A DNA stretch of 63,822 bases, counting the filler, from Candidatus Zhuqueibacterota bacterium (GTDB lineage: Bacteria > BS750m-G25), in the NCBI GenBank assembly GCA_016783505.1. It is 4 parts of 4 records of this genome, joined end to end, with 100 filler letters (N's around TTAATTAATTAA, not from the genome) between each part and the next. Parts side by side here need not be neighbours in the genome. Positions count along the whole stretch, not along the records: positions 49,030 to 63,822 come from JADHWK010000052.1; 3 more parts are not named here. One strand, given 5' to 3'. The notes under the pieces were generated by a model. It worked only from the letters and a program-made list of their open reading frames with translations, searched no databases and was not told the DNA's origin. How positions within the stretch are numbered: the first letter of the stretch is position 1; every line of letters begins with the position of its first letter. The position numbers were made by a program, and so were the translations under genes. Positions 4,980 through 63,822 of the stretch are shown piece after piece.

Positions 4980-4987
4980 GCAAAAAA

Positions 4988-8014: not shown

Positions 8015-8061
8015 TGTCTGGCCTGGCCATTAAAATTTTAAGGGAAAAAACCTTAGTCTCA

Positions 8062-9373: not shown

Positions 9374-9382
9374 CTCAACCAT

Positions 9383-9448
9383 AATATACTGAACAAATGT
9401 TCAATTGTCAAGAGAAAAATGAAAAATATCTATACATTTGTTCAGTAT
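9383..9448 (-). promoter_or_regulatory. Promoter with two LexA-like GAAC-N4-GTTC boxes
   Basis: TTGACA (9411-9406)-17 nt-TATATT (9388-9383). GAAC-AAAT-GTTC at 9391-9402 lies in the spacer, and a second imperfect box sits at 9432-9443. Confidence 0.75.
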
Positions 9449-9491
9449 TAAACCTAAGAGTTTACTCCCCTTACCCTCCTTTAAGCAAAAT

Positions 9492-9521
9492 AAAAAAAGC
9501 CAAACATAATAGCTTGGCTTT
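9492..9521 (-). terminator. Putative intrinsic terminator of the dipeptidase gene
   Basis: AAAGCCAA...TTGGCTTT stem with an A-run on + (U-run on the minus transcript). Confidence 0.6.
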
Positions 9522-9569
9522 CCTTCTCGGTTAGATCTAATGTTTATCTTTACCCGATAAATTCCCTCG

Positions 9570-16909: not shown

Positions 16910-17009
16910 NNNNNNNNNNNNNNNNNNNNNNNNNNNNNNNNNNNNNNNNNNNNTTAATTAATTAANNNNNNNNNNNNNNNNNNNNNNNNNNNNNNNNNNN
17001 NNNNNNNNN
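16910..17009. other. Artificial contig linker
   Basis: N-run, TTAATTAATTAA, N-run. Confidence 0.98.
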
Positions 17010-32992: not shown

Positions 32993-33092
32993 NNNNNNNN
33001 NNNNNNNNNNNNNNNNNNNNNNNNNNNNNNNNNNNNTTAATTAATTAANNNNNNNNNNNNNNNNNNNNNNNNNNNNNNNNNNNNNNNNNNNN
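32993..33092. other. Artificial contig linker
   Basis: N-run, TTAATTAATTAA, N-run. Confidence 0.98.
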
Positions 33093-48929: not shown

Positions 48930-49029
48930 NNNNNNNNNNNNNNNNNNNNNNNNNNNNNNNNNNNNNNNNNNNNTTAATTAATTAANNNNNNNNNNNNNNN
49001 NNNNNNNNNNNNNNNNNNNNNNNNNNNNN
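48930..49029. other. Artificial contig linker
   Basis: N-run, TTAATTAATTAA, N-run. Confidence 0.98.
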
Positions 49030-49030
49030 T

Positions 49031-49144
49031 ATTGACTTCGATAAGGGGCTTCTTTCCGTACTCACCCCCCTACCGGAAGAGGCCGCAGTAGGTGCTATCG
49101 CCCTCAGTGACTTAAGGATTACCCGGGAAGGAAAACAACTTTAA
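49031..49144 (+). CDS. 3' end of a gene truncated at contig start, possibly a Clp1-like polynucleotide kinase
   Basis: Open frame IDFDKGLLSVLTPLPEEAAVGAIALSDLRITREGKQL*. The family call is a weak resemblance only. Confidence 0.35.
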   Translation: MDFDKGLLSVLTPLPEEAAVGAIALSDLRITREGKQL

Positions 49145-49241
49145 ATCTCACCAATCCCCTCGAAAATTCTAAAAATAGACACAGCAGATGGGGAAGACAT
49201 TTATCCAACTATCCAATTATCCAACCTTTTACAAACAAGCC

Positions 49242-49748
49242 TTATTCAAATCTCCAGGCAAGTCGCCTGACCAGCAGGGGAACCAGGACAAGCTGGCTAA
49301 CTAATCCCGGAAGTCCTATGAGCACCATCCCCTTTATGTAGATCAGGATGGGAATTTCGATGCCCAGAAAAGCCCCGAAGAGGGCCACCATCAGGCCCAG
49401 AACAACCCGTCCGGCCAGCATGGCCAGGGGCAGGGTAAGCCAGATCGTTACTCCCCTGTCCTTCCCCAGAAACCCGCACACAACCCCGTAGGTAGCCATT
49501 TCGGGCACCATCAGCACCGCCGTAGGGATAAACGGGGGCATGCCCGTAAGCAAAGCCCCTAATAAAGGACTGAATAATCCCACCAGCAATCCCCCAGACC
49601 AGCCGAGTAAAAAACCCGCCAGAAAAACGGGTAAATGCATGGGAAGAAAAATGCGACCTACCTGGGGGCCAAGGAGATGGAAGAGAAAGGCCAGGATCAC
49701 CCCAAGGGAGGTGAAGGCAGCCAACATGGCCAAAAACCGAGTGCTCAT
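49242..49748 (-). CDS. ECF transporter S-component
   Basis: FLPMHLPVFLAG, GMPP and E..TYG motifs; hydrophobic throughout. Confidence 0.85.
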   Translation of the reverse strand: MSTRFLAMLAAFTSLGVILAFLFHLLGPQVGRIFLPMHLPVFLAGFLLGWSGGLLVGLFSPLLGALLTGMPPFIPTAVLMVPEMATYGVVCGFLGKDRGVTIWLTLPLAMLAGRVVLGLMVALFGAFLGIEIPILIYIKGMVLIGLPGLVSQLVLVPLLVRRLAWRFE

Positions 49749-49790
49749 CGTAATTCGAGGAAAGATTTGGGATAGACGATCAATGGGATA

Positions 49791-51761
49791 TTATTTCAGC
49801 AGGGTCATCTTTCCTGCTTTGATAAAATTATTAATTTCAATAACATAGAAGTATATTCCTGAAGGTTGATAATCGGAATCCCAAACTTCTTGGTATATTC
49901 CCCTTCTTTTAAACCCATTTACCAGAACAGAAACTTCTTGACCCAGTGAATTATAAATTGTGATACGGACCCGGCAATGCTTCGGAATTCCAAAAGGAAT
50001 GATGGTTGAAGAGTTAAAGGGATTGGGGTAATTCTGACTCAGCCAGAACGCTGAGGCCTTATCTTTTTTTTTCTCCCGGACGGTTTCTTCTCCCCCGGCT
50101 TCATAAAACCGGGCCTTAAATTCCTGAATATACAGGTTAGCGATGTTGGAGTCGTGGATGATCAAAGTGTTTTCGTCGTTCTCGTTTTCTGCCGCCGATG
50201 TCCAGTTGTGAGAACCGGTGATGAGGATGGGATCGGAATCCGGATGCTCCCCGTCAATGATCATGTATTTATGGTGCAGCAGGCCATTCCCAATACCATC
50301 AACGAAGACCTCTGCCGGGGGATTCCAAGGGTTCCCCCCTCCCTGGCCCGAAAGGTCCCAGTATTCACTATATTGTCCCCAATAGGGATCTAAGGCTTGC
50401 GAAGAATCAAAAACTGCCTGCACCCGGAAATCTGGATAGCTATCATCGTCATCCCATTTGACCTTCATGCCATCAGAGATTCCCTGTCGGGTAAAGGTAT
50501 ATATGCAAAAGAAGATCTCATAATCAGCGGTGGCAATTGCATCAAGGATACGTTGGGTAACGTCATCGGTGGGGGACATGTATTGTTCGATCAGAATGCT
50601 GTCCACAGTGAAGGAATGAGGGGTGTTATCCGACTTTCGACTGCCGAAGCGGGAATCGGCGGGATCGGGGCTGAGCGTTGAGGAACCCCACATCTCCTCA
50701 AACTCCTGGGTATAGGCGGCGGCCAGGGTGCTGCTCCGGAATTCAACGACGTTATTGGCGTCGTATAAATTACCCCCATAGCTAAAATTAAAGGAACCGG
50801 TGAGCACCCAATCATCCTCTGGATCATCCCCCAGGCGGTGATCCACCACCAGAAACTTGTTGTGCATAATGCCGCCCCCAGTATTCTGTCCAAAGCTATC
50901 GTCTATCACGGGAATACCGGCATTCTCTAAGGCTTGTACCTCGGCATTGCCCCTTTTGGTATCATCAGTAATAAACCGCACTTCGACCCCCCGGTTGAGG
51001 GCGGCGATCAGGGCATCCCGCACATCCCATAGGGTGAGATTGTAGACGCAGCAATCAACGGAATACTGGGCAGAGTCAATCCGGGCGGCGACCTTTTCCC
51101 CTAAGTCTACACCCCCATCGGCCTCCTGAGTGGTGGCGAAATCTGCCTCCACGCTTTTACTGAAATAGACCCTGATAATTCTCACCCCTCCCAGTCCCTG
51201 TGGGGTGGGAACGGATAAATCCTGAAAGTCAACAGAACAGTCATCGGTGTCCTCCCCGTGGGGGTTGCGTTCGATGGAATGTCCCTCGGGAACCCCGGGA
51301 TGGGCGATAACCCCGGAGAAGCTCCCGTTTTCATAGGTAACCACGTCCACGTACTGGGCATGATCCTCCTGGCCTAACAGAATTTCATCCCCACCGTTGT
51401 TCAGGGCAAAGGTCATCTCGACGTCAGGGGTAAAACCAAAGGCCTGGGCGAAAGCGGTGCTGTTCTTGGCCACCAATAGATAACCCTGAGCGGGAATCAC
51501 CGTTCCCGGGGGAAACTGTCCATAGCCCTCGTAACCCGTAGTGTCTTCCTCATCCCCAAAATACCATCCGCTGAGGTTCACATCGTCCTCGGTGGGGTTG
51601 TAAAGCTCCACAAATTCGGCCTCATCAGAACCGGCTACATCGTAGTAGACCTCATTGATAACGACATGGTCGGCGATGTCCCCCAGAATTTCATGGTGAA
51701 GACAAAAAAGCAGGGAAAGGATTGTCAGGAATCTCATTATGTGATTCTTTTTCATAATCAT
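49791..51761 (-). CDS. Secreted lamin-tail-domain + phospholipase D (2x HKD) protein with a C-terminal sorting-type domain
   Basis: VVINEV..EFVELYN, HNKFLVVD and HHKYMIID, GSFN/GSHN, NYPNPFN...KMTLLK tail. Confidence 0.88.
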   Translation of the reverse strand: MIMKKNHIMRFLTILSLLFCLHHEILGDIADHVVINEVYYDVAGSDEAEFVELYNPTEDDVNLSGWYFGDEEDTTGYEGYGQFPPGTVIPAQGYLLVAKNSTAFAQAFGFTPDVEMTFALNNGGDEILLGQEDHAQYVDVVTYENGSFSGVIAHPGVPEGHSIERNPHGEDTDDCSVDFQDLSVPTPQGLGGVRIIRVYFSKSVEADFATTQEADGGVDLGEKVAARIDSAQYSVDCCVYNLTLWDVRDALIAALNRGVEVRFITDDTKRGNAEVQALENAGIPVIDDSFGQNTGGGIMHNKFLVVDHRLGDDPEDDWVLTGSFNFSYGGNLYDANNVVEFRSSTLAAAYTQEFEEMWGSSTLSPDPADSRFGSRKSDNTPHSFTVDSILIEQYMSPTDDVTQRILDAIATADYEIFFCIYTFTRQGISDGMKVKWDDDDSYPDFRVQAVFDSSQALDPYWGQYSEYWDLSGQGGGNPWNPPAEVFVDGIGNGLLHHKYMIIDGEHPDSDPILITGSHNWTSAAENENDENTLIIHDSNIANLYIQEFKARFYEAGGEETVREKKKDKASAFWLSQNYPNPFNSSTIIPFGIPKHCRVRITIYNSLGQEVSVLVNGFKRRGIYQEVWDSDYQPSGIYFYVIEINNFIKAGKMTLLK

Positions 51762-51801
51762 AAACCTCTAAAGAGGTAACTCCGAGTAACAATAAACTGA
51801 G

Positions 51802-52314
51802 TTACCCCGAAGTTTCGGGGTTTGTTTTTTTAACCCTTTTTATTATCTGAGTGCGAACCACCCAGGCATTGGTATACCCCAGTTCAAAGGCCTCTTCCTT
51901 AAGCCGCTCGGCATCCCGCCAGCTCTCACAGTCTCCCAGCCTCACCTTATAGTTTGGGACATCGTATTCGAGATAGACTCCGGTTAGTTCCTGAAAGGTT
52001 GCTGACGCTTCAGCCTCCACTTCCCGGGCTGCATCCCCATCGGGGGAGGAGAAGATCTGAACCCGAAACCCGGGCACTAATCTTTCTTCATAACCAACCT
52101 CCACCGTATCCTGGGGTTGTTCCTCAGCCTTCTTTTCCATAATTCCCTCAAAGATATCGTCATCGAGAAGCAGGGGATCAATGGGCTGATGGACCTTAGG
52201 TGAAGGGGGTTCCTGCACCAACAGTGAATCCTCCCTAGCTTCCTGACCAAAATTAGTGCCCGGAGGGAGAAAAACCAGGGTAATGATGAAAACAAGCAGG
52301 TATATACGATTCAT
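51802..52314 (-). CDS. SPOR domain protein
   Basis: Signal peptide, GFRVQI, YKVRLGD and GYTNAWVV. Confidence 0.85.
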   Translation of the reverse strand: MNRIYLLVFIITLVFLPPGTNFGQEAREDSLLVQEPPSPKVHQPIDPLLLDDDIFEGIMEKKAEEQPQDTVEVGYEERLVPGFRVQIFSSPDGDAAREVEAEASATFQELTGVYLEYDVPNYKVRLGDCESWRDAERLKEEAFELGYTNAWVVRTQIIKRVKKTNPETSG

Positions 52315-52514
52315 ACTTTGTAAAAATAAAGGATTTTAGGGATAAAGTCAAGAGAAAAAACAAGGGGTTGACCAATTCTTACCCCCGGATTTTTCCCCAA
52401 TGCCTGGGAAAATTTTTCTTATTTGGTTAACGTTCTCTAAAATTCTTAATTTTTTTGTTGATTTTTTCCTTATATATTGTTAAATTCTTAACAAATTGAT
52501 TTGTGGAGAAAGGA

Positions 52515-52922
52515 ATGAGAGCAGAGATATCTACAAAGAATATCAGGAGTGAATTCGTTCAAAGGGTGGAGGAATTAAGCGGGCAGGATCTCCTTGCCTG
52601 CTATCAATGCGGTAAGTGCTCTGCTGGATGTCCCATAGTGGAAGAGATGGATATTATACCCAACCAGGCCATCCGATTGGCCCAACTTGGATTAGAAGAT
52701 GAGGTCTTAAACTCAAAAACGATATGGCTCTGCGCTTCCTGTTTTATGTGTTTTTCACGCTGTCCCAAAGGAGTAGATTTTTCAAAAATAGCCGAGGCCC
52801 TGCGGATGATAGCCATGGGGACGGAGATCGAACATTATGGTCCCCAGCAGGTGCCATGGGAGATCGCTGCTGAAGCCCCCCAGCAAGCCCTGGTAAGCGC
52901 CTTCCGAAAATTCAGTCTTTAG
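52515..52922 (+). CDS. hdrC: Heterodisulfide reductase subunit C
   Basis: CYQCGKCSAGCP and WLCASCFMCFSRCP. Confidence 0.92.
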   Translation: MRAEISTKNIRSEFVQRVEELSGQDLLACYQCGKCSAGCPIVEEMDIIPNQAIRLAQLGLEDEVLNSKTIWLCASCFMCFSRCPKGVDFSKIAEALRMIAMGTEIEHYGPQQVPWEIAAEAPQQALVSAFRKFSL

Positions 52923-52925
52923 GAG

Positions 52926-53855
52926 ATGACAATGAAATTATGTTACTACCCGGGATGCACCTTAAAGGATAAAACCACCAATCTCGATCAAACGACTATA
53001 GCCGCTGCCGATGAGCTAGGCATTGAATTGGTTGAGCTCCCCAACTGGACGTGCTGTGGGGCCACTTATCCCCTGACCGAGGAAAAAATCGCCAATCTGG
53101 TACCCCAGATCAGGATTCTGTATAATGTGATGGTGGAAGGGGATAATCGGGTAACCACAACCTGCGCCTTCTGTTACAGCACCCTGAAGCGCGCCAACCG
53201 GGCAATTCTAAATGACCCCATTAAGAGAAAACGCATCAACGCTTATCTGAAGGATGACAAGCGGATACCGGAGTACGATAAGGAAACCGTCTATAATTTT
53301 AAGGATTACAATGGCGAGGTAAAGGTCGTTCACTTTTTAGAAGTCTTGAGGGACGATGTGGGGTTTGAAAACCTTTCTCTGAAGCTAAAAAAGAATCTTG
53401 AGGGACTGAAGGTGGCCCCTTATTACGGTTGCAAACTATTGCGTCCCCCCGAAGAGATGGAGTTTGATGACCCGGAGAATCCCCGGATTATGGAGGATTT
53501 TCTTGAAAGCCTCGGATGTGAAGTTATAGATTATCCCTTTAAAACCGATTGTTGCGGATCCTACCTATCCCTCTCGGCGCCCGATGCTGCCACTCGTGCC
53601 TCCCATTTGATATTGAACTCAGCAGTAAAAAATGGAGCCGATCTAGTCGCCTTAACCTGTCCCCTCTGCTATTACAATCTGGACAGGAGACAGGAGGATA
53701 TCGGTAACCGGTTTATGGACTTCAGCCCGATACCCGTCTTATTCTTTACCCAGCTCCTAGCTATTGCCCTGGGAGTTGAAGATGAAATTCTAGGTTTAGA
53801 TCAACATTATATTGATCCATCCCCGTTATTAAGGGAGAAGAAACTGGTAACTTAG
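52926..53855 (+). CDS. hdrB: Heterodisulfide reductase subunit B
   Basis: Two CCG domains: YYPGC..CCGA..CAFC and YYGC..CCGS..CPLC. Confidence 0.93.
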   Translation: MTMKLCYYPGCTLKDKTTNLDQTTIAAADELGIELVELPNWTCCGATYPLTEEKIANLVPQIRILYNVMVEGDNRVTTTCAFCYSTLKRANRAILNDPIKRKRINAYLKDDKRIPEYDKETVYNFKDYNGEVKVVHFLEVLRDDVGFENLSLKLKKNLEGLKVAPYYGCKLLRPPEEMEFDDPENPRIMEDFLESLGCEVIDYPFKTDCCGSYLSLSAPDAATRASHLILNSAVKNGADLVALTCPLCYYNLDRRQEDIGNRFMDFSPIPVLFFTQLLAIALGVEDEILGLDQHYIDPSPLLREKKLVT

Positions 53856-53912
53856 CTCGCCCAAATACAGATCGGTTCTTAGTAAATCCGGAACATCAAA
53901 TCAGGAACTGCT

Positions 53913-55205
53913 ATGAAGAGAATAGGTATCTTTGTTTGTCATTGTGGAATAAACATCGCTGGTGTCATTGATGTCAAAAGGGCTGCCGAGGAATTGAGTA
54001 GCTATCCGGGGGTAGAATTTTCTACCGATTATATCTACATGTGTTCCGAACCCGGTCAAATCCTGGTTAGGGATACGATCAGGGAGAAGAAACTTGATGG
54101 GGTGGTAGTCGCCGCCTGTTCCCCAACCTTACACGAGCTTACCTTTCGCACCGCCTCGAGGCTGGCCGGTCTGAATCCATATCAATGTGAAATAGCCAAT
54201 ATCAGGGAGCAGTGTAGCTGGGTTCATGCGGATAAGGAAAAGGCTTTCCAAAAGGCCCTAAAGATCATTAAGAGTACCATTGAGAAAGTTAAATATAATG
54301 AATCATTAGAGCCCATCAGCGTTCCTGTCAACCGACGAGCCCTGGTCATTGGGGGGGGGATCGCCGGGATTCAGGCGGCCCTGGATATCGCCAACAGCGG
54401 CTATGAAACCCTGCTGGTGGAAAGGCAACCCTCCATTGGGGGGCACATGATTCAGCTCTCCGAGACTTTCCCAACCCTGGACTGTTCCCAGTGCATCCTT
54501 ACCCCGAAGATGGTGGAGGCAGGACAGCATCCAAAGATAAAATTATTCACCTACTCCGAAATAGAAGAAATTGGGGGTTATATTGGTAATTTTAAGGTAA
54601 AGATTAGGAAAAAGGCCAGATCCATTGATGAAGAAGCATGCACGGGTTGTGGAGAGTGCATGGTAGCCTGTCCGGTGAGGAACGAGCCTCAAATTCAGCC
54701 TATCCCCAAATACAGTGAACAGATTGAGCCCGGGGAACTTAAAATACTTGACAGAATTATGGCAGCCTATGCACCCACTAATCCTGGCGTCCCGGGCAAG
54801 GAGATGCTTATTCAGATATTGCAAGATGTCAATCTCGAATATCACTATTTGCCAGACTATACCTTGAAGTATATCTCTGAGAGGCTACAGCTCCCGCTTT
54901 CAGTCGTCTATCACGTAGCCACTTTCTACACAGCCTTCAGCCTGAAACCGAGGGGTGAGCATCTAATCAGGGTTTGCATGGGTACTGCGTGTCATGCACG
55001 TGGGTCACCGAGGGTTCTGGAAGAGTTGGAGAGGCAGTTAGAAATACCCCGAGGCGAGACAACACCCGATCTCCAGTTCACTCTGGAAACGGTCAACTGT
55101 CTCGGCTGCTGTGCCCTTGGACCTGTTGTAATGGTTGATAGTAATTATCACTCCATCACTGCTAATAAGGTAGGAGGGTTACTTAAAAAATATAGTAAAT
55201 CATAA
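53913..55205 (+). CDS. HdrA N-terminal half fused to a NuoE/HydC-like [2Fe-2S] domain
   Basis: CHCGINI, ACSP, NIREQCSW, GGGIAG, TFPTLDC and CTGCGECMVACP, then VATFY..CMGTAC..CLGCC. Confidence 0.9.
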   Translation: MKRIGIFVCHCGINIAGVIDVKRAAEELSSYPGVEFSTDYIYMCSEPGQILVRDTIREKKLDGVVVAACSPTLHELTFRTASRLAGLNPYQCEIANIREQCSWVHADKEKAFQKALKIIKSTIEKVKYNESLEPISVPVNRRALVIGGGIAGIQAALDIANSGYETLLVERQPSIGGHMIQLSETFPTLDCSQCILTPKMVEAGQHPKIKLFTYSEIEEIGGYIGNFKVKIRKKARSIDEEACTGCGECMVACPVRNEPQIQPIPKYSEQIEPGELKILDRIMAAYAPTNPGVPGKEMLIQILQDVNLEYHYLPDYTLKYISERLQLPLSVVYHVATFYTAFSLKPRGEHLIRVCMGTACHARGSPRVLEELERQLEIPRGETTPDLQFTLETVNCLGCCALGPVVMVDSNYHSITANKVGGLLKKYSKS

Positions 55206-55266
55206 TAGGTGCTAAAAAATTTGCTTCGTCAGACAAAAATTCCTTTTATGAAAACCGGGAGTAGAG

Positions 55267-57132
55267 ATGTCAAGACTTAATAGCATAAAAGAGCTAGATA
55301 AATTGAGCAAGGAGATTCTTAGCGGCAAGGACCCCAAGAGGAAGTGTATTACTGTCTGTGGTGGTACAGGTTGTATTGCATATGGAAGCCCGAATGTTGT
55401 GGACGCTTTTAAGAAAGAATTGAAGCAACAAAAGCTTGAAGATAAGGTGGACATCCTGGTAACTGGTTGTCACGGATTCTGCGAAAGAGGTCCTTTAGTT
55501 GTAATTCGTCCTGAAGGAATCTTCTACCAAAGAATAAAGCCCGAGAATATTCATGAGATTATCAAAGATACGGTAATTGATGGCAAGATTCTCGATCATC
55601 TTCTCTATACTGATCCCATAACTGGCGAGAAAATTGTTTACGAGCATGAAGTACCGTTTTACAAGAAGCAAGTACGACTTGTCTTTGGCAACAACGGATT
55701 TATCGAACCCACGAGTATCACTGACTATATTGGGATCGGTGGGTATAGCGCCCTTGCAAAAGTGCTCTCAGGTATGACCCCTGAGAAAGTAATTGATATT
55801 GTAAAAAAATCTGGACTCAGAGGACGGGGAGGGGGCGGTTTCCCAACAGGTGTCAAATGGGAGTCATGTCGAAAAGCAGAGGGCGATGTTAGATATGTCC
55901 TATGCAATGCCGACGAGGGAGATCCTGGGGCCTATATGGATAGAAGTGTATTAGAGGGAAATCCTCACTCTGTTTTAGAAGGAATGATTATAGGAGCGTA
56001 TGCTATTGGCTCACATGAAGGATATATCTATGTCCGACAGGAGTATCCATTAGCCGTAAAACACTTTGGAATTGCACTGGAGAAGACTCGTGAATATGGA
56101 CTCCTGGGAAAGAATATATTGGGTTCAGGTTTTGATTTCGATATTACGATAAATAGGGGCGGTGGTGCCTTTGTCTGTGGTGAATCAACAGCTCTTATGG
56201 CATCTATTGAGGGGAATCCAGGCGAACCGAGAGCGAAGCATGTCCATACTGTTGAAAAAGGACTATGGGATAGGCCGAGTAACCTTAATAATGTAGAGAC
56301 CTGGGCCAATGTGCCACTTATCATTAATAAAGGTTGGGAGTGGTATTCCAAAATTGGAACAGAAAAGAGCAAGGGAACAAAAATATTTTCTCTTGTGGGT
56401 AAAGTTAATAATACTGGGTTAGTAGAAATTCCGATGGGCATGACCTTGCGAGAAGTCGTGTATGACATAGGAGGAGGAATAAGAGGAGGGAAGAACTTTA
56501 AGGCAGTTCAAACTGGCGGCCCATCTGGAGGCGTAATACCCGAGAGTCTTCTTGACCTTCCAGTTGACTTTGAACGCCTCACAGAAGCTGGGAGTATGAT
56601 GGGCTCAGGTGGAATGATAGTGATGGATGATAGTAACTGTATGGTGGATATTGCCAAATACTTTATCAATTTTCTAAAGGATGAATCCTGCGGCAAATGT
56701 ACCCCTTGCCGCCAAGGGCTAATACAAATGCACCAAATTCTAACGGATATTTGTCAAGGCCAAGGCGTAATAGAGGATTTGGCACTCCTTGATAAGCTGT
56801 GTTGGATTGTCAGTGAAACTTCCCTGTGTCAACTGGGTGCCACTGCTCCAAATCCAGTATTAACTACTATAAGATATTTCAGGGATGAATACCAGGCCCA
56901 CATCATTGACCGGAAATGTCCGGGCGGGGTCTGTAAGGAGTTGATTCATTATTTTGTGGATGAAGAGAGATGCGTTAGCTTAGGTCACGGATGTGGAGCA
57001 TGCCGGAGGAGTTGTCCCCAGCAAGCTATCAGTGGGGAGAAGAACCAACTCCACCGTATTGACCAAAACAAATGTAACAAATGTGGAATTTGTTTGGATA
57101 CTTGCAAATTTGAAGCGATTATTCTGGAATAG
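55267..57132 (+). CDS. NuoF/HydB(BfuB)-like FMN/NAD(H)-binding subunit, long form
   Basis: N-terminal thioredoxin-like CGGTGC..CHGFC, GLRGRGGGGF, NADEGDPGAYMD, CGKCTPC, and C-terminal 2x[4Fe-4S]. Confidence 0.93.
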   Translation: MSRLNSIKELDKLSKEILSGKDPKRKCITVCGGTGCIAYGSPNVVDAFKKELKQQKLEDKVDILVTGCHGFCERGPLVVIRPEGIFYQRIKPENIHEIIKDTVIDGKILDHLLYTDPITGEKIVYEHEVPFYKKQVRLVFGNNGFIEPTSITDYIGIGGYSALAKVLSGMTPEKVIDIVKKSGLRGRGGGGFPTGVKWESCRKAEGDVRYVLCNADEGDPGAYMDRSVLEGNPHSVLEGMIIGAYAIGSHEGYIYVRQEYPLAVKHFGIALEKTREYGLLGKNILGSGFDFDITINRGGGAFVCGESTALMASIEGNPGEPRAKHVHTVEKGLWDRPSNLNNVETWANVPLIINKGWEWYSKIGTEKSKGTKIFSLVGKVNNTGLVEIPMGMTLREVVYDIGGGIRGGKNFKAVQTGGPSGGVIPESLLDLPVDFERLTEAGSMMGSGGMIVMDDSNCMVDIAKYFINFLKDESCGKCTPCRQGLIQMHQILTDICQGQGVIEDLALLDKLCWIVSETSLCQLGATAPNPVLTTIRYFRDEYQAHIIDRKCPGGVCKELIHYFVDEERCVSLGHGCGACRRSCPQQAISGEKNQLHRIDQNKCNKCGICLDTCKFEAIILE

Positions 57133-57149
57133 GAGAAAGGGGAATTCAA

Positions 57150-58919
57150 GTGGGAACGTTCGTCATTGATGGGCAGGAGGTCCAGGCTGATCCGAACAAA
57201 ACGGTATTAGAAATTGCTCAAGAGCTTGGCCTAAATATCCCAACGCTCTGTTACCATAAATCACTCTCTCCATACGGAGCCTGTCGGATCTGCACAGTTG
57301 AGATCATCTGGGGAAAAAGATCACGTCTCATCACTGCTTGTACCTACCCCGCTTGGGAGGGGATGGAGGTTAAGACAAATTCAGAGAAGGTGATAAGAGC
57401 CCGGAAGTTGTTATTGGAACTGAAGCTTGCCGAAGCGCCGGGTTCACCGGAGATCAAGAAACTGGCACATGAATATGGTGTTGAAAAGACGGAATTCAAG
57501 GTTGTCGGAGATGAGGATAACAGATGCATCATGTGCGGCTTGTGTGTGCGCATCTGTGAAGATGTTATGGGTATAGGTGCAATTGGGTTTAAAAATCGTG
57601 GAGATCGTCGGGAAATTACCCCCCCACTTGAGGAGTATTCCGATGTTTGTTCTACCTGTGGAGCCTGCGTTTATGTTTGTCCCACTGGAGCGATTAAACT
57701 CGAAGAGTTCACTGACAGAAAACCGATTCCAATCCCCTCTGAATTCGACGCGGGATTAACCTCAAGACCATGTATTTACACGCCATTCCCCCAAGCTGTG
57801 CCAAATAAGCCGGTCATAGATAGGGAAAACTGCATGTTCTTTAAAACGGGGGACTGTAGAATCTGCGAATCGGTGTGTCAGCCTCAGGCAATAAAGTATG
57901 ATCAAGAGGATATAATCATTGAGGAGGAGGTGGGGGCCGTGGTGGTGGCCACCGGTTTTGATCTTTATCCTATGATAAAGCTGGGCGAATACGGGGGTGG
58001 AAAGATCAAAAATGTCATTGACGGATTGGCCTTTGAGAGGATGCTCTCAGCTTCAGGACCCACTCAAGGCGAGGTCAGAAGGCCTTCTGACGGGGTGGTT
58101 CCCAAGGAGGTGGTATTCATCCAGTGCGCTGGTTCCCGGGATCCGGAGCAGAACCTGCCCTATTGTTCCAAGATCTGTTGTATGTACACCACCAAACACG
58201 CCATGCTCTACAAACATCGGGTCCCTGATGGTCAGCCCTACGTATTCTACATTGACATGCGAACCGGGGGGAAGGGGTATGAGGAGTTCTACCAGCGGGC
58301 CATTGATGAGGATGATGTGGTTTTCCTCAGGGGCAAGGTGTCCAAGATATACGAGGAGGATGGTAAAGTAGTCGTCTGGGGGGCGGATACCCTGACCGGG
58401 AAAAAAGTAGAGATCAGGGCCGATATGGCAGTTTTGGCCATGGGGATCGTCCCTAGTGAAGGCACCGATGAACTTGTTAGAAAATTAAAGATCGGCTGCG
58501 GCGATGGAGGATTTTTAACGGAAGCCCATCCCAAACTGCGCCCGGTGGAAAGCATGTCCGCCGGTTTCTTCCTGGCCGGTTGCGCCCAGGCACCCAAAGA
58601 CATCCCCGAGGTAGTGGCCCAGGCCAGCGGAGCCGCCAGCAAGGTAGCCGCTCTCTTTTCGCAGGAAAGGCTATATCACGAACCTATTGTGGCGGTAGTT
58701 GATGAGGACATCTGCAGCGGTTGTAAGATTTGTATTCCTATGTGTCCTTACGAAGCCAGAGAATTTGATGAGGAGAAAAAGATAGTTAGTGTCAAGGAGG
58801 TGCTGTGTGAGGGATGCGGAGCCTGTGTGGCGGCCTGTCCCTCTGGAGCCACCCAGCAGAGAAACTTGCGGGATGATCAGATATTCAAGATGATAGAAGC
58901 CGGGGTGGAGGTGACCTGA
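57150..58919 (+). CDS. NuoG/HydA-like N-terminal Fe-S domains fused to the HdrA C-terminal half
   Basis: PTLC..GACRIC..TAC, CIMCGLCVRIC and CSTCGACVYVCP, then EFDAGL..PFPQAVP, ATGF, FERML, CAGSRD, CSKICCMYTTK, PKDIP and a terminal 2x[4Fe-4S]. Confidence 0.9.
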   Translation: MGTFVIDGQEVQADPNKTVLEIAQELGLNIPTLCYHKSLSPYGACRICTVEIIWGKRSRLITACTYPAWEGMEVKTNSEKVIRARKLLLELKLAEAPGSPEIKKLAHEYGVEKTEFKVVGDEDNRCIMCGLCVRICEDVMGIGAIGFKNRGDRREITPPLEEYSDVCSTCGACVYVCPTGAIKLEEFTDRKPIPIPSEFDAGLTSRPCIYTPFPQAVPNKPVIDRENCMFFKTGDCRICESVCQPQAIKYDQEDIIIEEEVGAVVVATGFDLYPMIKLGEYGGGKIKNVIDGLAFERMLSASGPTQGEVRRPSDGVVPKEVVFIQCAGSRDPEQNLPYCSKICCMYTTKHAMLYKHRVPDGQPYVFYIDMRTGGKGYEEFYQRAIDEDDVVFLRGKVSKIYEEDGKVVVWGADTLTGKKVEIRADMAVLAMGIVPSEGTDELVRKLKIGCGDGGFLTEAHPKLRPVESMSAGFFLAGCAQAPKDIPEVVAQASGAASKVAALFSQERLYHEPIVAVVDEDICSGCKICIPMCPYEAREFDEEKKIVSVKEVLCEGCGACVAACPSGATQQRNLRDDQIFKMIEAGVEVT

Positions 58920-59052
58920 TAATATTGATCTTTAGGATCTGAAGGACTGGATCGGACAATTGAAGAAGGAAAGTCGGAAAGTCATGTTCCGAGACTTGGG
59001 GATCGGTATATTTCCGACTTTCTACTTATATTAGTTTAGAATTAAATACGCA

Positions 59053-60984
59053 ATGAGACTCACATTACGGACAAAGTTAATCATTAGTTTTTTAGTCGTC
59101 GTCCTTATCACCGGTTTTTTTGCCACCTGGGTGGGGGTGCGCTTGATTGGATCTGGGATTATACGGCAAGCCCAGGATAAGGTGAGGGTTGATCTCAATT
59201 CTGCAAGACATATATACCAAGATAAATTAGAAGAAGTAAAGTATGTTGTCCGTTTCAATGTTAATAGATTTTTTATAAGGGATGTTCTTTTAGGTGGTGA
59301 TATAGAATTTTTGCAAGATGAGTTGAGAAGGATTAGAGAAAGAGAAGCATTAGATGTTCTTACGGCTACCGATAAAAATGGAATTGTTGTTTTTAGAGCC
59401 AAGAACCCTGCGGTCTATGGGGATAGCCAAGCTGGGGATGAAGTGGTAAACTTTACCCTTTCTAATAGGGAAGTTGTGGCATCAACGGTGATCGTTAGCC
59501 GGGAGGAATTATTAAAAGAAGGGAACGATCTTGCTGAGAGAGCCCATATAAAGTTAATCCCCACACCCAGGGCCAAGCCGAGGCCGGAAGGTGTGGAGAC
59601 TTCCGGAATGATGATCAAGGCGGCGGCCCCTGTTTTCGACTATGGTGGTAATTTGTTAGGGGTTTTATACGGGGGTAAATTGCTCAACAGGGATTATGAA
59701 ATTGTGGATGAAGTGAAGGAAACAGTCTATCAGGGTCAGACCTATAAAGGAAAGGACATGGGGACGGCGACTATTTTTCAGGGGGACCTGCGAATTTCCA
59801 CAAACGTCAAAAGGAAGGATGGCAGTAGGGCTATCGGAACCCGGGTATCCGAGGAAGTCAATAATCAAGTATTAGTTAAGGGATTGCCGTGGATCGAGAG
59901 GGCGTTTGTGGTCAACGATTGGTACATCACTGCATATGAACCGATAAGGAATATCCGAGGAAACATTATTGGAATCCTATACGTAGGAATTCTTGAAGGG
60001 AAATTCGTGGATATGAGAAGGAGGACGATGTGGATGTTTTTAGGTATAACCTTTGCTGGTATAATGGTTGCTACGATTGCTTCATACTTTCTGGCCAACG
60101 GGGTATTGAAGCCCATCAAGCATTTAGTTTGGGCCTCTAAACAAATTGCCGGGGGGGATTTGACCTACAGGGTAAAGCTCAAAACAAAGGGTGAAATTGG
60201 CGAGTTGGGTGAAGCATTTAATTTCATGGCCTCATCCCTTAAGGATAGGGATGAGCAGTTAAAGGAGAGGGCTAAACAGACCATAATGAAGTCCGAAAGG
60301 TTAGCCACCCTGGGGAAGTTGGCGGCGGGGGTGGCTCACGAGATTAATAATCCAATTAGTGGCATTTTAACCTATATTAAGTTGCTTTCTAAGAAATTAG
60401 AGAAAGGAGAGGATACTTCTGAATTTAAGCGTTACTTAACAATAATGGAGCGGGAAACAGCGCGAGTTGGCCGGACAGTTAAGAATTTGCTCGATTTCTC
60501 CCGAAAACAGGAACCTGATATAACCTCCATTGACATTAATGAGGTAATAGAACAGAGTCTTCTCCTCCTAAATAAATCATTTACGATAGGAAATATAGAT
60601 GTTAAGCGTGAAAGTATGGGTCATATACCAAAGATATTGGGTGACTTCGGTCAGCTCCAACAAGTTTTTATAAATCTCGTTCTTAATTCTATGCAGGCCA
60701 TGAAAGAGGGTGGAAGGCTCCAAATAAAAATCCGATCCGAAGAAAGTTCAGGAAGATTGTGTTTTGTTAGAATAGAGGTTTCTGATAATGGTTGTGGTAT
60801 ACCAAAGCGCAATATACCCAAGATTTTTGATCCGTTCTTTACAACAAAGGGTGGGAAAGATGGTATTGGTTTAGGACTTGGACTTTCTATTGTTCAAAGC
60901 ATTATTAATGCACATAACGGGCATATCCATGTAGAAAGTAAAGTAAAAGAGGGAACCACTTTTACTGTTTGGTTACCTATTTGA
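59053..60984 (+). CDS. Membrane sensor histidine kinase (Cache + HAMP + HisKA/HATPase, NtrB-like)
   Basis: Two TM helices, GVAHEINNP, DNGCGI, FDPFFTTK and GLGL. Confidence 0.93.
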   Translation: MRLTLRTKLIISFLVVVLITGFFATWVGVRLIGSGIIRQAQDKVRVDLNSARHIYQDKLEEVKYVVRFNVNRFFIRDVLLGGDIEFLQDELRRIREREALDVLTATDKNGIVVFRAKNPAVYGDSQAGDEVVNFTLSNREVVASTVIVSREELLKEGNDLAERAHIKLIPTPRAKPRPEGVETSGMMIKAAAPVFDYGGNLLGVLYGGKLLNRDYEIVDEVKETVYQGQTYKGKDMGTATIFQGDLRISTNVKRKDGSRAIGTRVSEEVNNQVLVKGLPWIERAFVVNDWYITAYEPIRNIRGNIIGILYVGILEGKFVDMRRRTMWMFLGITFAGIMVATIASYFLANGVLKPIKHLVWASKQIAGGDLTYRVKLKTKGEIGELGEAFNFMASSLKDRDEQLKERAKQTIMKSERLATLGKLAAGVAHEINNPISGILTYIKLLSKKLEKGEDTSEFKRYLTIMERETARVGRTVKNLLDFSRKQEPDITSIDINEVIEQSLLLLNKSFTIGNIDVKRESMGHIPKILGDFGQLQQVFINLVLNSMQAMKEGGRLQIKIRSEESSGRLCFVRIEVSDNGCGIPKRNIPKIFDPFFTTKGGKDGIGLGLGLSIVQSIINAHNGHIHVESKVKEGTTFTVWLPI

Positions 60985-61526
60985 TGGAAAAGAATCCTAT
61001 TTATGTTATATCAATCGGTGAGATTGAGCAAACGATTTTAGATTTTTTGTCGCGGAGAATAGAGTTGAGATTTAATTGTCCTTCCATTATCTTAGAGAGT
61101 ATAGAAAAACCTCATTATGCTTTTGATAATAAGAGAAATCAATTTTTTTCAAGCAGGATTCTAAAGGAATTAATACATATTATCCCCCTTGATGCATTAA
61201 AAATATTGGGGATTACTTGGGTTGATTTGTATATTCCTGTTTTAACCTTTGTTTTTGGACAAGCTCAGCTTGGTGGGAAAGCGGCTTTAATCTCACTTCA
61301 CCGTTTATCCCCGAAATATTACGGTTCAACAGCGAATAACTCTCTACTTCTGGAGAGAGCCGCTAAGGAAATAGTCCACGAGCTTGGCCATACATTTAGG
61401 TTAACCCATTGTCGGGATAAAATGTGTGTAATGCATTTTTCTGCTTCTATAAGAAATATAGATGTAAAAGGGGATATTTTTTGTGACAGTTGCTTAAAGA
61501 TATTAGAATCGAGGAAAAAGAAATGA
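60984..61526 (+). CDS. Archaemetzincin-family Zn metalloprotease
   Basis: FVFGQA, HELGHTFRLTHC...CVM...FCDSC; overlaps both neighbours. Confidence 0.88.
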   Translation: MEKNPIYVISIGEIEQTILDFLSRRIELRFNCPSIILESIEKPHYAFDNKRNQFFSSRILKELIHIIPLDALKILGITWVDLYIPVLTFVFGQAQLGGKAALISLHRLSPKYYGSTANNSLLLERAAKEIVHELGHTFRLTHCRDKMCVMHFSASIRNIDVKGDIFCDSCLKILESRKKK

Positions 61527-62884
61527 GAATTAGAGAGACAACCCGTATTTTGGTAGTTGACGATGAATTGATTATGAGGGAATCATTGTCTGATTGGTTA
61601 AGAGAAGATGGGTATGGAGTAGAAGCAGTAGATAATGGATACAAGGCTTTGGAGAAAGTCAAAAAGGAGCGTTGGGATATATTGCTTGTTGATTTAAAAA
61701 TGCCTGGAATAGATGGCATTGAGGTAATGCAAAGGGTGAAGAAAATAAATAAGGGTCTCCCCGTTGTCATAATAACTGCATATGCAACTGTTGACACTGC
61801 AGTTAAAGCGATCAAGGAGGGAGCTTATGATTATATTGTTAAGCCATTTAATCCTGAGGAAATAGGACTTATCATTAGGAATATAATTGCACATCAAAAC
61901 TTAATCAAAGAGAATATATACCTACGCCAGGAACTAAAAAAAAGATACGAGTTTAAAGACATTATCGGCAAGAGCCATAAGATGCAGGATGTTCTTGAAA
62001 TGATTAAGACTGTTGCAAAAAGCAACACAACCGTATTGATTGAGGGAGAAAGCGGTACTGGTAAGGAACTCGTTGCGAGGGCAATACACTCATTGAGTTT
62101 AAGAAATAAGGAACCATTCGTTGCTGTATCCTGTGCTGCCTTGCCTGAAACTTTGTTAGAATCAGAATTGTTTGGATATGAAAAGGGTGCTTTTACAGGA
62201 GCAGTAGCAACAAGAATAGGAAATTTTGAGCTTGCGGATAATGGAACACTATTTTTGGATGAGGTTGGCGATACTAGTCTAAAGACGCAAGCAGATTTGT
62301 TGAGAGTTTTGGAGGAAAAAGAGTTCAGAAGGGTTGGTGGCACAAAATTAATTGAAGTTGATGTAAGAATTATTTCAGCTACTAATAGAAATTTAAAAAA
62401 ATTAATAAATGAAGATAAATTTAGGGAAGATTTATACTATAGGTTGAATGTTGTTTCTATTCATGTTCCTCCATTAAGAGAAAGAAAGGAAGACATACCT
62501 CTATTTGCTGAACACTTTTTAAAGAAGTATTCAATTGAAAATAAAAAAGATGTAGAATGGATAGAAGAAGATGCTTTAAGCCTACTAATGAAATATGATT
62601 GGCCTGGTAATGTAAGGGAACTTGAGAATGTGATAGAAAGAGCAGTTGTATTGGTAAAGCGAAATTTTATTGGCGTAGATGAGCTGCCGACATTTGTAAA
62701 AATAGCGGAAAAAGAAGAGTTTAAACCTTCGCTAAACAGGCCATTAAAGGAAATTGAGCGCGAGTATATATTTTGGGTTCTTAAAGCTAATCAATGGAAG
62801 ATAAAGAAAGTCGCCACTATCTTAGGGATAGATCGTACCACTCTCTATAATAAAGTAAAAAAATATAATCTCAAACAGAATTAA
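61523..62884 (+). CDS. Sigma54-dependent response regulator (NtrC/AtoC family)
   Basis: REC domain, GESGTGKE, GAFTGA, WPGNVREL and a Fis-type HTH. Confidence 0.95.
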   Translation: MRIRETTRILVVDDELIMRESLSDWLREDGYGVEAVDNGYKALEKVKKERWDILLVDLKMPGIDGIEVMQRVKKINKGLPVVIITAYATVDTAVKAIKEGAYDYIVKPFNPEEIGLIIRNIIAHQNLIKENIYLRQELKKRYEFKDIIGKSHKMQDVLEMIKTVAKSNTTVLIEGESGTGKELVARAIHSLSLRNKEPFVAVSCAALPETLLESELFGYEKGAFTGAVATRIGNFELADNGTLFLDEVGDTSLKTQADLLRVLEEKEFRRVGGTKLIEVDVRIISATNRNLKKLINEDKFREDLYYRLNVVSIHVPPLRERKEDIPLFAEHFLKKYSIENKKDVEWIEEDALSLLMKYDWPGNVRELENVIERAVVLVKRNFIGVDELPTFVKIAEKEEFKPSLNRPLKEIEREYIFWVLKANQWKIKKVATILGIDRTTLYNKVKKYNLKQN

Positions 62885-62941
62885 TCTACCATAAAGTTGA
62901 ATATTTCAACTCAAAGTAGAAATTTTCTACTTCTTAATTCC

Positions 62942-63787
62942 TTAAACCAAAAGAAAATCCTTTATTAAACTTTCCCATTCTTCTTTATCTAACTTATCGG
63001 TCGTACGGATTAGAGTTCCACCATCTACTACAGTGACACCGATATCTCTTTCAATCCTGTAACGCAACCTATCCACATCCCCCTCAAACCATACTTTTGC
63101 TTCTTCCCCAAATAAGAGATTTTTAAGACTATTCTGTAAATTCGATGGTTCCATTGTAATCACCCATCTCATATAAGGATCTTCATTCAAAAGGGATACA
63201 TCATCTTTGAGCTTCTCATTCGTATACCTAATTCTACCATCAATTGGAGAACATAGCCTTACATTCCTTTCTCCGCATTTAAGCCCAAAAAGAGGACTTT
63301 CCTTATGGATTCTTATGCCTTTCTCTGGCAAATCTATTCCAGTTACCTTACCCAATAGCTTATGAGCAAGATCATCTATTCCTAACCTAATAGTGCCATC
63401 TTTCCTGGTTTCAATCCAGATGTGCTTAGGATGATAGAAAAATTTCTCAACCAAAGCAAACCCTTCTATAAAACTCACCTTTCGCTCAGTCCGTGAAGCT
63501 GCGATACATATCGGTTCATAAGGGCATGCATTGCATGCGTAGATACGACAAATTTTCCAAAAGCCTGGTGGGAAATATCTATGCTCCCCCCTTGCTTTAT
63601 ATTTTTTCATTTCCATATCTCCTCCCTTGTTTGCCTTTGCAATAGCCTTGTACTCTAGACAATCATTATGTTTTTCACTTAAGCATAAACTGAGCTTATC
63701 TGAGCTACTCGAAGGAATCATCTTCTTCACTGGATAAGCTTCACAATATCTTACCAAAACCTCTTCTAAAAATGGACACTGCATCAT
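62942..63787 (-). CDS. GcvH-like protein with a Cys-rich N-terminus, lacking the lipoyl lysine
   Basis: HIWI...RLGIDD...SPIDG...N...LLNEDPY..W H-protein fold; the VESVKA position reads LKCGER. Confidence 0.8.
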   Translation of the reverse strand: MMQCPFLEEVLVRYCEAYPVKKMIPSSSSDKLSLCLSEKHNDCLEYKAIAKANKGGDMEMKKYKARGEHRYFPPGFWKICRIYACNACPYEPICIAASRTERKVSFIEGFALVEKFFYHPKHIWIETRKDGTIRLGIDDLAHKLLGKVTGIDLPEKGIRIHKESPLFGLKCGERNVRLCSPIDGRIRYTNEKLKDDVSLLNEDPYMRWVITMEPSNLQNSLKNLLFGEEAKVWFEGDVDRLRYRIERDIGVTVVDGGTLIRTTDKLDKEEWESLIKDFLLV

Positions 63788-63822
63788 TACCTCCTTTCAT
63801 AAAAAATATGGCAGGATACCCC

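Follow-up and report, generated by a model that had tools for sequence, protein, structure and literature searches.

The stretch of DNA analysed here (hereafter the window), 63,822 nucleotides (nt) from the metagenome-assembled genome of Candidatus Zhuqueibacterota bacterium (BS750m-G25, GCA_016783505.1), contains a five-gene operon in which hdrA is split inside the region encoding its inserted ferredoxin domain, and the two halves are fused to two subunits of a HydABC/Bfu-type module for nicotinamide adenine dinucleotide (NADH) and ferredoxin. The five products may form one soluble iron-sulfur flavoprotein complex, in which the Bfu-type NADH/ferredoxin module would be plugged into HdrA and wired to the disulfide site of HdrBC, a reading to which we assign a probability of roughly 0.5.

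The genome comprises 89 contigs (2,512,417 bases) and is 60% complete, so that absences from it are given below as 'not found'. Four of these contigs (C62, C64, C65 and C68) make up the window, joined by runs of N at 16910-17009, 32993-33092 and 48930-49029. The operon lies wholly inside the last contig, C68 (window 49030-63822, 14.8 kb; JADHWK010000052.1), and, because of this joining, the genes to the left of 49030 are not its neighbours.

Anatomy of the five-gene operon

The components of the operon, with the predicted operator in front of it, are as follows (aa, amino acids).

52479-52496, no strand: predicted Rex-type operator palindrome, TTGTTAAATTCTTAACAA, an exact consensus match 19-36 nt upstream of the hdrC ATG
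52515-52922 (from the ATG; the open reading frame opens at GTG 52503), plus strand: hdrC, 135 aa, 2 x [4Fe-4S] ferredoxin-like, Pfam Fer4_8/Fer4_17
52926-53855, plus strand: hdrB, 309 aa, Pfam CCG in two stretches, predicted site of the non-cubane clusters and of the disulfide
53913-55205, plus strand: protein 3, HdrA N-terminal half (N-half) fused to a NuoE/HydC/BfuC-type subunit, 430 aa
53913-54680, plus strand: HdrA N-half (protein 3 residues 1-256), with the N-terminal cluster domain, the GxGxxG motif for flavin adenine dinucleotide (FAD) and the first Cys motif of the inserted ferredoxin domain
54681-55205, plus strand: linker (~35-40 aa) and NuoE/HydC/BfuC-type [2Fe-2S] domain (residues 296-430), in frame with the HdrA N-half
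55267-57132, plus strand: protein 4, long NuoF/HydB/BfuB, 621 aa, with full-length structure alignments
57150-58919, plus strand: protein 5, NuoG N-terminal part fused to the HdrA C-terminal half (C-half), 589 aa
57150-57722, plus strand: NuoG/HydA/BfuA N-terminal iron-sulfur part (protein 5 residues 1-191), Pfam Fer2_4, Fer4_Nqo3 and Fer4
57723-58919, plus strand: HdrA C-half (protein 5 residues 192-589), in frame with the BfuA part

All five open reading frames are on a single strand, free of stops and frameshifts, and separated by gaps of 3, 57, 61 and 17 nt, that is, with operon-like spacing; the likely start of hdrC is the ATG at 52515, with GGAGAAAGGA in front of it. The hdrC product matches HdrC (8rvv_C, E 1.2e-18) and has eight Cys residues arranged as the two CxxCxxCxxxC motifs expected of this subunit, and the hdrB product aligns over its full length with a methanogen HdrB (8rvu_b 1-284, E 1.3e-38) and has the two CCG domains of that subunit, with Cys pairs at 43/44 and 209/210.

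The HdrA homologue is not the single polypeptide of ~650 aa but two chains, with the break at HdrA position ~259/265. Residues 3-256 of protein 3 align with HdrA 5odc_A 5-259 (E 1.2e-93) and residues 192-586 of protein 5 with HdrA 8rvu_a 265-653 (E 1.5e-116), so that the pieces ~1-259 and ~260-650 abut, with no loss or overlap beyond a few residues. The break, at window positions 54680 and 57722, separates the two Cys motifs of the inserted ferredoxin domain: the first, CTGCGECMVACP (residue 243), is in protein 3, and the second, C-x7-C-x2-C-x3-C, is in protein 5. Also in the C-half are the remainder of the FAD/thioredoxin reductase domain, including its [4Fe-4S] cluster, and, at the C-terminus, the 2 x [4Fe-4S] ferredoxin domain. 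The core of the FAD/thioredoxin-reductase-like fold is complete between the two chains, with the GxGxxG motif (GGGIAG, protein 3 residue 147) and the flavin-side lysine, and the full Cys set of HdrA is shared out between them. In protein 5 the motifs EFDAGL, PFPQAVP, FERML and CCMYTTK are at 198, 212, 295 and 343-349, respectively; the lysine of CCMYTTK (K349) is presumably the residue facing the flavin N5.

The inserted genes comprise a complete Bfu/HydABC module. Residues 296-428 of protein 3 match the HydC/NuoE subunit 8a6t_C (E 2.7e-40; 7t2r_C also ~1e-40) and the Pfam family 2Fe-2S_thioredx (E 6.1e-44), which identifies the [2Fe-2S] subunit BfuC. Protein 4 aligns end to end with the bifurcating HydB 7t2r_B 6-594 (E 9.5e-242), and also with 9mqx_B, 8a6t_B and 9n5u_B, and has the full BfuB domain set: an N-terminal thioredoxin-like [2Fe-2S] domain, the site for flavin mononucleotide (FMN) and NADH with the motif GAYM at residue 221, a [4Fe-4S] domain and a C-terminal 2 x [4Fe-4S] ferredoxin (Pfam 2Fe-2S_thioredx at 22-101, Complex1_51K, SLBB, NADH_4Fe-4S, and Fer4_21 at 563-618). 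Residues 4-191 of protein 5 match the N-terminal iron-sulfur part of NuoG/HydA (9mqx_A 7-192, E 8.5e-42), with one [2Fe-2S] and two [4Fe-4S] motifs, the first clusters of BfuA, and without a catalytic domain. All five proteins score below the curated NCBIfam cut-offs (for example, HdrB 167 versus 345 bits), and the family goes under generic names only.

By Pfam, no genes for mvhD, hydrogenase or formate dehydrogenase, and none for etf or flx, are present on the 14.8-kb contig. An earlier note, made from the DNA sequence alone, had already described the main lines of this anatomy. The gene order it gave is confirmed by the open reading frames, Pfam and structure matches, and the break of HdrA after the first inserted-ferredoxin motif, with resumption two genes on, by alignments and motif positions; all the FAD and iron-sulfur motifs that it quoted for the two halves, including FERML and CCMYTTK, were located. 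Its assignment of the NuoF to the long, bifurcating type agrees with the full-length match to bifurcating HydB structures, and the absence of mvhD, hydrogenase and formate dehydrogenase genes from the cluster holds for the whole contig.

Conservation, variants and exchange of the cassette

The split-HdrA/Bfu architecture is spread through many lineages of uncultured bacteria and archaea. For protein 3, 7998 relatives were scored, and every one of the best 120 is a fusion of an HdrA N-half with NuoE (373-488 aa; 55-79% identity, the window's own excepted), and 113 of the 120 best relatives of protein 5 are fusions of the NuoG N-part with the HdrA C-half, the remainder being 4 fragments and 3 ordinary HdrA; both counts include the window's own and near-identical entries. 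Each fusion is carried by more than 100 clusters at 90% identity, and the source names of the carriers include candidate divisions WOR-3, TA06 and NC10, Cloacimonadota, [Eubacterium] cellulosolvens (the label of P0074 and P0203), Methanomassiliicoccales and Thermoplasmata. The species-genome collection, with one genome per species and this genome as the only member of its phylum, was scanned for the best 80 loci, which is not a census: the three-gene order is kept in 3 of them (metagenome-assembled genomes labelled bacterium, Spirochaetales and Thermoplasmata), and the other 77 have a one-chain HdrA. Among 100 other bacterial genomes (one per family, related to the source genome at the domain level only), the 589-aa form was found in none and a tandem form of ~1070 aa (see below) in 2.

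Could the split be an artefact, either of assembly (the source is a metagenome-assembled genome of 60% completeness) or of a decaying hdrA broken by an inserted operon? A search for the architectures and for synteny, and a check of the junctions, had been proposed in the earlier note, and the results favour a real locus. A 5816-bp contig from a run of another study (X2) covers 54354-59000 with 11 differences, contigs from a third study (X5) cover 54549-54882 and 57334-57912 and thus bridge both junctions, and a contig of a fourth study bridges the first junction; a possible source run covers the whole stretch with zero differences. A scan of metagenome contigs with the junction peptide yielded one near-identical 1255-bp fragment only and no synteny data. 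Given these junction-spanning contigs of other studies, the more than 100 clusters for each fusion, the absence of stops and frameshifts and the invariance of all ligands, we reject mis-assembly and decay as having a negligible probability.

The ligands are conserved throughout the family. In an alignment of 16 members of the protein 3 family, C9, C11, C44, C69, C191, C194 (the equivalent of HdrA Cys197), C243, C246, C249 and C253 are invariant in all 16, as are C355, C360, C396 and C400 of the NuoE domain. In protein 5, the Cys residues of the BfuA part (C34/45/48/64, C126/129/132/136 and C167/170/173/177) and, in the HdrA C-half, C228/236/239/243, C326/339/343/344, K349, C522-532 and C553-563 do not vary among the 20 members aligned; the GxGxxG motif is likewise invariant among the aligned members. 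The gap between the BfuA part and the HdrA C-half, as defined by BLAST, is very short throughout the family, with a median of 4 residues (range 2-23). Single-chain AlphaFold models are confident in the N-terminal, NuoE and NuoG-N domains, and the predicted local distance difference test score falls below 50 at the split parts (protein 3 residues 176-196 and 232-262; protein 5 residues 194-221), which is soft evidence, in agreement with chains that would need each other to fold.

The genome has a second, diverged copy of the split-HdrA/Bfu genes, on contig C61 (L081; 4790-17152), with 34-56% identity part by part. The gene order there is rex, hdrC, hdrB, a free HdrA N-half and five genes of regulator type (DRTGG, CBS-HATPase, DRTGG, PHP and HATPase), followed by nuoE, a gene for a small [2Fe-2S] protein, one for a 1013-aa NuoF-GltD fusion, the fusion of NuoG-N with HdrA-C and, where the contig ends, the beginning of mvhD; the free N-half is 284 aa long and ends 24 residues past the same Cys motif. 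Because this copy has a free N-half and a fused C-half, the fusion of the HdrA N-half with NuoE is optional, whereas that of BfuA with the HdrA C-half is kept. Upstream of this locus are hypD and hypE.

In two of the three related loci (L001 and L003) and in the C61 copy, the split hdrA is followed by mvhD, which the window locus lacks. In L001 and L003, two genes for iron-sulfur proteins accompany mvhD, and a sensor kinase gene is found there instead in the window. The cassette thus coexists with MvhD in this family, and the suggestion of the earlier note that the NADH module replaces MvhD or Flx as the electron input does not hold as worded: the cassette is in the inserted ferredoxin domain, and relatives retain mvhD.

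Several other HdrA variants were encountered. In L038 and L052, which are of the HdrA-NfnB/HdrL type known from ANME-1 (PMC9012536), an insert of 500 aa resembling GltD/NfnB (Fer4_20 and Pyr_redox_2) occupies the same boundaries within one chain. The last residue of the HdrA N-part is 271 in L038 and 260 in L052, and the C-part begins again at 773 and 756, respectively. In the tandem form (proteins of ~1061-1138 aa, P0243-P0362), the NuoG N-part is followed by an HdrA C-half without the C-terminal ferredoxin domain and by a second HdrA-like unit. A NuoF domain was found in none of the 120 listed long-form proteins, so that no single-chain version of the whole was seen among them. Loci with the tandem form include G056:C92:327-3548 and G001:C33:4555-7695; by source names it occurs in Thermoplasmata, WOR-3, Chloroflexota, Deltaproteobacteria, Poribacteria and Stahlbacteria, apparently as a large family, and its second HdrA-like unit recalls the fused double HdrA of BamE.

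Elsewhere in the genome, contig C1 (L082; 74305-76857, minus strand) encodes an HdrA-MvhD fusion as two open reading frames with a lone in-frame TGA between them, exactly where Cys197 would be (DCSI-TGA-ILGPKM), possibly a selenocysteine codon; with one in-frame TGA between the frames and no cassette, the pair was rejected as a third split hdrA. Beside it are genes for a 955-aa double HdrA and another MvhD. Contig C83 (L085; 4111-7211) encodes MvhD, an iron-sulfur protein and a fumarate-reductase-like flavoprotein, and contig C27 (L086; 1114-6101) a four-subunit NAD(P)-linked [NiFe] hydrogenase of the sulfhydrogenase type, with HycI.

The history of the cassette was addressed with trees of ~190-400 alignment columns, built partly with quick methods. 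In a FastTree phylogeny of the HdrA C-half (144 rows, including the 7 split rows of the loci and the genome in full and roughly one in two of the split database proteins), split and one-chain forms are interleaved, and the split label requires 15 changes, 12 of them forced by well-supported branches; in an IQ-TREE phylogeny of 43 hand-picked rows, 11 changes are required, 7 of them forced. When 22 split rows, a group chosen after the tree had been seen, were constrained to stay together, the cost was 494 log-likelihood units (approximately unbiased test, p 1.7e-63), and a single origin of the split forms is rejected for the HdrA C-half. The GltD-insert forms of L038 and L052 are sisters of split forms (support 98-100 in IQ-TREE). 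In L002 (a metagenome-assembled genome of Spirochaetales, 4010-10898), an ordinary one-chain hdrA lies directly upstream of the split hdrA/Bfu genes, and the C-half of its product groups in the tree with the split forms of L002, L003, P0222 and P0237. The tree of the NuoG N-part conflicts with the HdrA tree, and the pairwise identities are mosaic: P0131 and P0139 are 90.4% identical in the HdrA C-half and 51.3% in the NuoG part, and P0131 and L001 are 73.8% identical in the NuoG part and 63.4% in HdrA. Given this discordance and mosaicism, there is evidence that the cassette has been exchanged among hdrA lineages at one fixed site.

Relation to known electron-bifurcating systems

The earlier note had read the locus as a covalently wired NAD(H)- and ferredoxin-linked Hdr enzyme with two potential bifurcation sites. 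This reading is supported and has a precedent in the class II benzoyl-CoA reductase (BCRII) of Geobacter metallireducens, Bam[(BC)2DEFGHI]2 ('Bam-Bfu' in Schut et al. 2022, PMC9304861; cryo-electron microscopy in bioRxiv 10.64898/2026.04.10.717634). According to these accounts, BCRII combines in one complex a HydBC/Bfu-type NADH and ferredoxin module (BamGHI), an HdrA-type FAD module (BamE) and the HdrBC-like BamD; the HydBC-type module confurcates NADH and reduced ferredoxin and feeds the HdrA-type module via BamI, the C-terminal ferredoxin-like domain and the MvhD-like BamF, and bifurcation comes next (bioRxiv 10.64898/2026.04.10.717634). The differences concern the number of parts and the port. 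As described for BCRII, the modules are encoded by separate genes, with BamF as an adaptor, BamE is a fused double HdrA that electrons enter by the C-terminal ferredoxin-like domain, and the tungsten-containing BamBC and the electron-transferring flavoprotein (ETF) are the low- and high-potential acceptors, respectively. In the window locus, by contrast, HdrA is single and split, both halves are fused to Bfu subunits, the connection is covalent and at the other port (the inserted ferredoxin domain), and there is neither an adaptor nor a catalytic third enzyme in the locus. No tungsten unit of the BamB/BamC type (AOR-type) and no BamF adaptor domains were found on contig C68; no search for BamB extended to the other contigs of the genome.

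A second precedent concerns the site of insertion. In the HdrA-NfnB or HdrL type (HdrA9-11 of ANME-1, Chadwick et al. 2022, PMC9012536; HdrL is mentioned in PMC12142623), a flavoprotein module that oxidises NAD(P)H interrupts the inserted ferredoxin domain at the same place, and 'two bifurcation sites' have already been suggested for it. There the insert is a single GltD/NfnB-like domain within one polypeptide, whereas here it is a three-subunit Bfu module, the gene is split, and a free BfuB lies between the halves. The C61 copy, with NuoF fused to a GltD-like domain in a split-HdrA locus, unites both designs.

The remaining comparisons are with systems that share single modules. MvhAGD-HdrABC of hydrogenotrophic methanogens (5ODC, 8RVU) has the homologous HdrA, HdrB and HdrC, all the cluster ligands of which are kept here; the window locus differs in lacking the hydrogenase and MvhD, in the division of HdrA into two chains, and in that the ferredoxin exit domain is taken by the Bfu module. 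With BfuABC/HydABC (PMC9304861; 7T2R, 8A6T, 9MQX, 9N5U) the likeness extends over the full length of BfuB and BfuC, and BfuA, with one [2Fe-2S] and two [4Fe-4S] clusters and no further ones, resembles the 'type 2' BfuA described in PMC9304861. The third-substrate partner here is HdrABC, compared with hydrogenase, formate dehydrogenase, Nfn, Wor or Por as given in that source, and BfuC as well as BfuA is fused to the partner; the text of PMC9304861, its large supplementary table apart, includes no Hdr-linked split type. FlxABCD-HdrABC of sulfate reducers (Ramos et al. 2015, as cited in PMC6037941 and PMC10327494), for which NADH-dependent reduction of ferredoxin and a disulfide has been proposed, is likewise an NADH-dependent bacterial HdrABC, but FlxA-D are described as separate proteins with the MvhD-like FlxD, whereas here a NuoEFG/Bfu-type module is fused into HdrA. 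The nearest case in the literature seen is Desulfotignum phosphitoxidans, in which nuoEFG, mvhD and hdrA are reported as co-located yet separate (PMC4046663).

Thus, two bifurcation modules in one complex (BCRII) and an NAD(P)H module at the same site of HdrA (HdrA-NfnB) are already known from the sources cited. The splitting of hdrA by a Bfu cassette of three subunits, with a fusion to each half, is apparently new: a literature search, with the HdrA(BC) review of Appel et al. 2021 and the supplementary table of PMC9304861 (either of which could name the type) outside its reach, did not turn up any account of an hdrA divided by a NuoEFG/Bfu cassette.

Proposed electron path, alternatives and significance

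The 52479-52496 operator is an exact match to TTGTTAANNNNTTAACAA, the Rex box of Ravcheev et al. 2012 as quoted in PMC5367854, and the only such match in the entire assembly. A rex gene (Put_DNA-bind_N and CoA_binding) is the first gene of the C61 locus, with a box of two mismatches 22 nt upstream of it. The genome therefore encodes both features by which a member of a Rex regulon is recognised in sequence, an operator in the promoter and rex itself, which suggests that the operon is controlled by the NADH/NAD+ ratio via Rex; the operator in turn points to NADH consumption. The sigma-54 promoter consensus has no match in the window, scans for sigma-70 promoters and terminators gave results at chance level, and Rfam has no match on contig C68.

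We propose that the two HdrA chains reassemble into a single FAD/thioredoxin reductase fold and an inserted 2 x [4Fe-4S] ferredoxin domain to which both contribute; because the fold of this domain needs both Cys motifs, which are on different chains, the chains would have to associate. A hydrogenase-free HydABC/Bfu module is spliced in at the inserted ferredoxin, with BfuC behind the first half, BfuB free and BfuA before the second half, and the short link between BfuA and the HdrA C-half would place the last cluster domain of BfuA beside the inserted ferredoxin domain. The predicted wire would run from the NADH/FMN site, with the ferredoxin site of BfuB itself, through the BfuA clusters to the clusters of the HdrA inserted ferredoxin, the FAD, HdrC and the non-cubane clusters of HdrB. 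Such an enzyme would link NAD(H) and ferredoxin to the reduction of some disulfide or an equivalent HdrB substrate, possibly with bifurcation or confurcation at both flavin sites. Because NAD(H), ferredoxin and the disulfide are the only possible substrates in a locus without mvhD, NADH- and ferredoxin-linked disulfide reduction is favoured, and the most likely role in vivo appears to be that of an NADH-oxidising sink under Rex control. The direction of the electrons is a weaker part of this proposal than the existence of the complex, and we hold it with less than even confidence.

Several observations weigh against this proposal. The transfer of electrons from NADH to a disulfide is exergonic by itself (PMC9304861 gives potentials of ~-280 mV for NADH and ~-140 mV for the heterodisulfide), so that additional reduced ferredoxin looks wasteful unless there is a second, low-potential output. 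The cassette is located at the port that is the low-potential exit in Mvh-Hdr, and the canonical input port of HdrA is without a partner in the window locus, the relatives having kept mvhD; with the exit port occupied and the input port partnerless, the electron flow may run the other way. That the halves rebuild one FAD site is predicted by sequence logic. The operator is a single site: Rex-like boxes with at most one mismatch are present in only 3 of 86 loci, and just one of these is close upstream of hdrC. With regard to the substrate of HdrB, no match to the DsrC family was found in the genome; nor was an [FeFe] hydrogenase.

These points leave room for other assignments of the ports. The Bfu-like module might be a plain NADH dehydrogenase input, as in Flx-Hdr, with the HdrA FAD as the sole bifurcating centre. 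NAD(P)H-oxidising modules recur at the same site (the GltD/NfnB insert of L038 and L052, and HdrA-NfnB of ANME-1 as described in PMC9012536), an NADH-dependent Flx-Hdr is the accepted model for sulfate reducers according to the citations in PMC6037941 and PMC10327494, the C-terminal ferredoxin domain is free in a locus without mvhD, and the Rex box suits an enzyme that consumes NADH. However, BfuB retains the N-terminal [2Fe-2S] and the C-terminal 2 x [4Fe-4S] domains that mark the bifurcating members, neither of which a plain input needs and which serve ferredoxin in BamH of BCRII as described, and the port roles of HdrA would be swapped relative to Mvh-Hdr. We regard this assignment as unlikely, although worth serious consideration.

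Alternatively, the port roles could be preserved, with a donor encoded elsewhere, such as a hydrogenase or an Flx-like module, feeding the HdrA FAD via MvhD, HdrA bifurcating to HdrBC and, by way of the inserted ferredoxin domain, to the Bfu module, and the latter splitting these low-potential electrons to NAD+ and ferredoxin, that is, two bifurcations in series. Besides the mvhD genes that follow the split hdrA in L001, L003 and the C61 copy, and the free mvhD genes on C83 and C1, this arrangement would be consistent with the inserted ferredoxin domain as the low-potential exit in Mvh-Hdr (as given in PMC9012536) and with Bfu enzymes in which mid-potential electrons enter at BfuA and are used to reduce NAD+ and ferredoxin (as given in PMC9304861). 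It is made quite improbable by the absence of mvhD or any donor gene from the 14.8-kb contig, by the fact that the mvhD of C83 belongs to a different system, with the fumarate-reductase-like flavoprotein, and by the Rex box, which suggests consumption rather than production of NADH.

Finally, the HdrBC-like pair might pass its high-potential electrons to another carrier instead of a disulfide, in the manner of BCRII, where the HdrBC-like BamD is reported to hand electrons to ETF. No known gene for a thiol/disulfide carrier was identified, DsrC among them, but HdrB has both CCG motifs and aligns with methanogen HdrB along its entire length, and there is no etf gene on the contig, so that we consider such an acceptor very unlikely. 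In our opinion, the five-subunit complex with NADH- and ferredoxin-linked disulfide reduction accordingly stays the preferred reading.

Directly downstream of the operon (59053-62884, plus strand) are genes for a Cache/HAMP sensor histidine kinase, a peptidase of the M54 family (archaemetzincin-like) and a sigma-54-dependent response regulator. They are followed by a gene on the minus strand (62942-63787) for a 281-aa protein with a Cys-rich N-terminal region of 110 residues and a GcvH-like domain, in which the lipoyl-lysine aligns to Glu and two Cys residues flank the hairpin (GLKCGERNVRLCSP). The dithiol of this protein might, judging from the sequence, serve Hdr as a substrate, but 4 kb separate the gene from the operon, to which it is convergent, and none was seen near L001-L003, which counts against this idea. 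Upstream, at 49791-51761, a gene encodes a PLD-like protein that also has a lamin-tail domain and a sorting domain for type IX secretion.

The two lines of analysis can be combined in a broader scheme, which we put forward tentatively and consider rather unlikely as a whole. The inserted-ferredoxin loop of HdrA would be an evolutionary 'socket' at which NAD(P)H modules (the three-gene Bfu cassette, GltD/NfnB domains, or both) are swapped among hdrA lineages, and the five-gene form would be a minimal two-stage engine: a Bfu-type confurcation of NADH and reduced ferredoxin, followed by a disulfide-driven HdrA-type bifurcation that would deliver electrons well below the ferredoxin potential to some acceptor, without hydrogenase, adaptor or tungsten enzyme.

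Flavin-based electron bifurcation enables anaerobic organisms to live close to the limit set by thermodynamics. The coupling of the unrelated HydBC/Bfu-type and HdrA-type devices was first shown in 2026, in the 1-MDa benzoyl-CoA reductase, and the five-gene locus encodes the same pairing with far fewer parts. The covalent fusions fix the contacts between subunits, so that the split-HdrA/Bfu system offers a tractable means to study how two bifurcation sites are coupled, which port of HdrA serves as the input and which as the output, and what the substrates of bacterial HdrBC are, and exchange of the cassette at one fixed site of HdrA, for which there is evidence in the discordant trees, bears on the evolution of modular redox enzymes.

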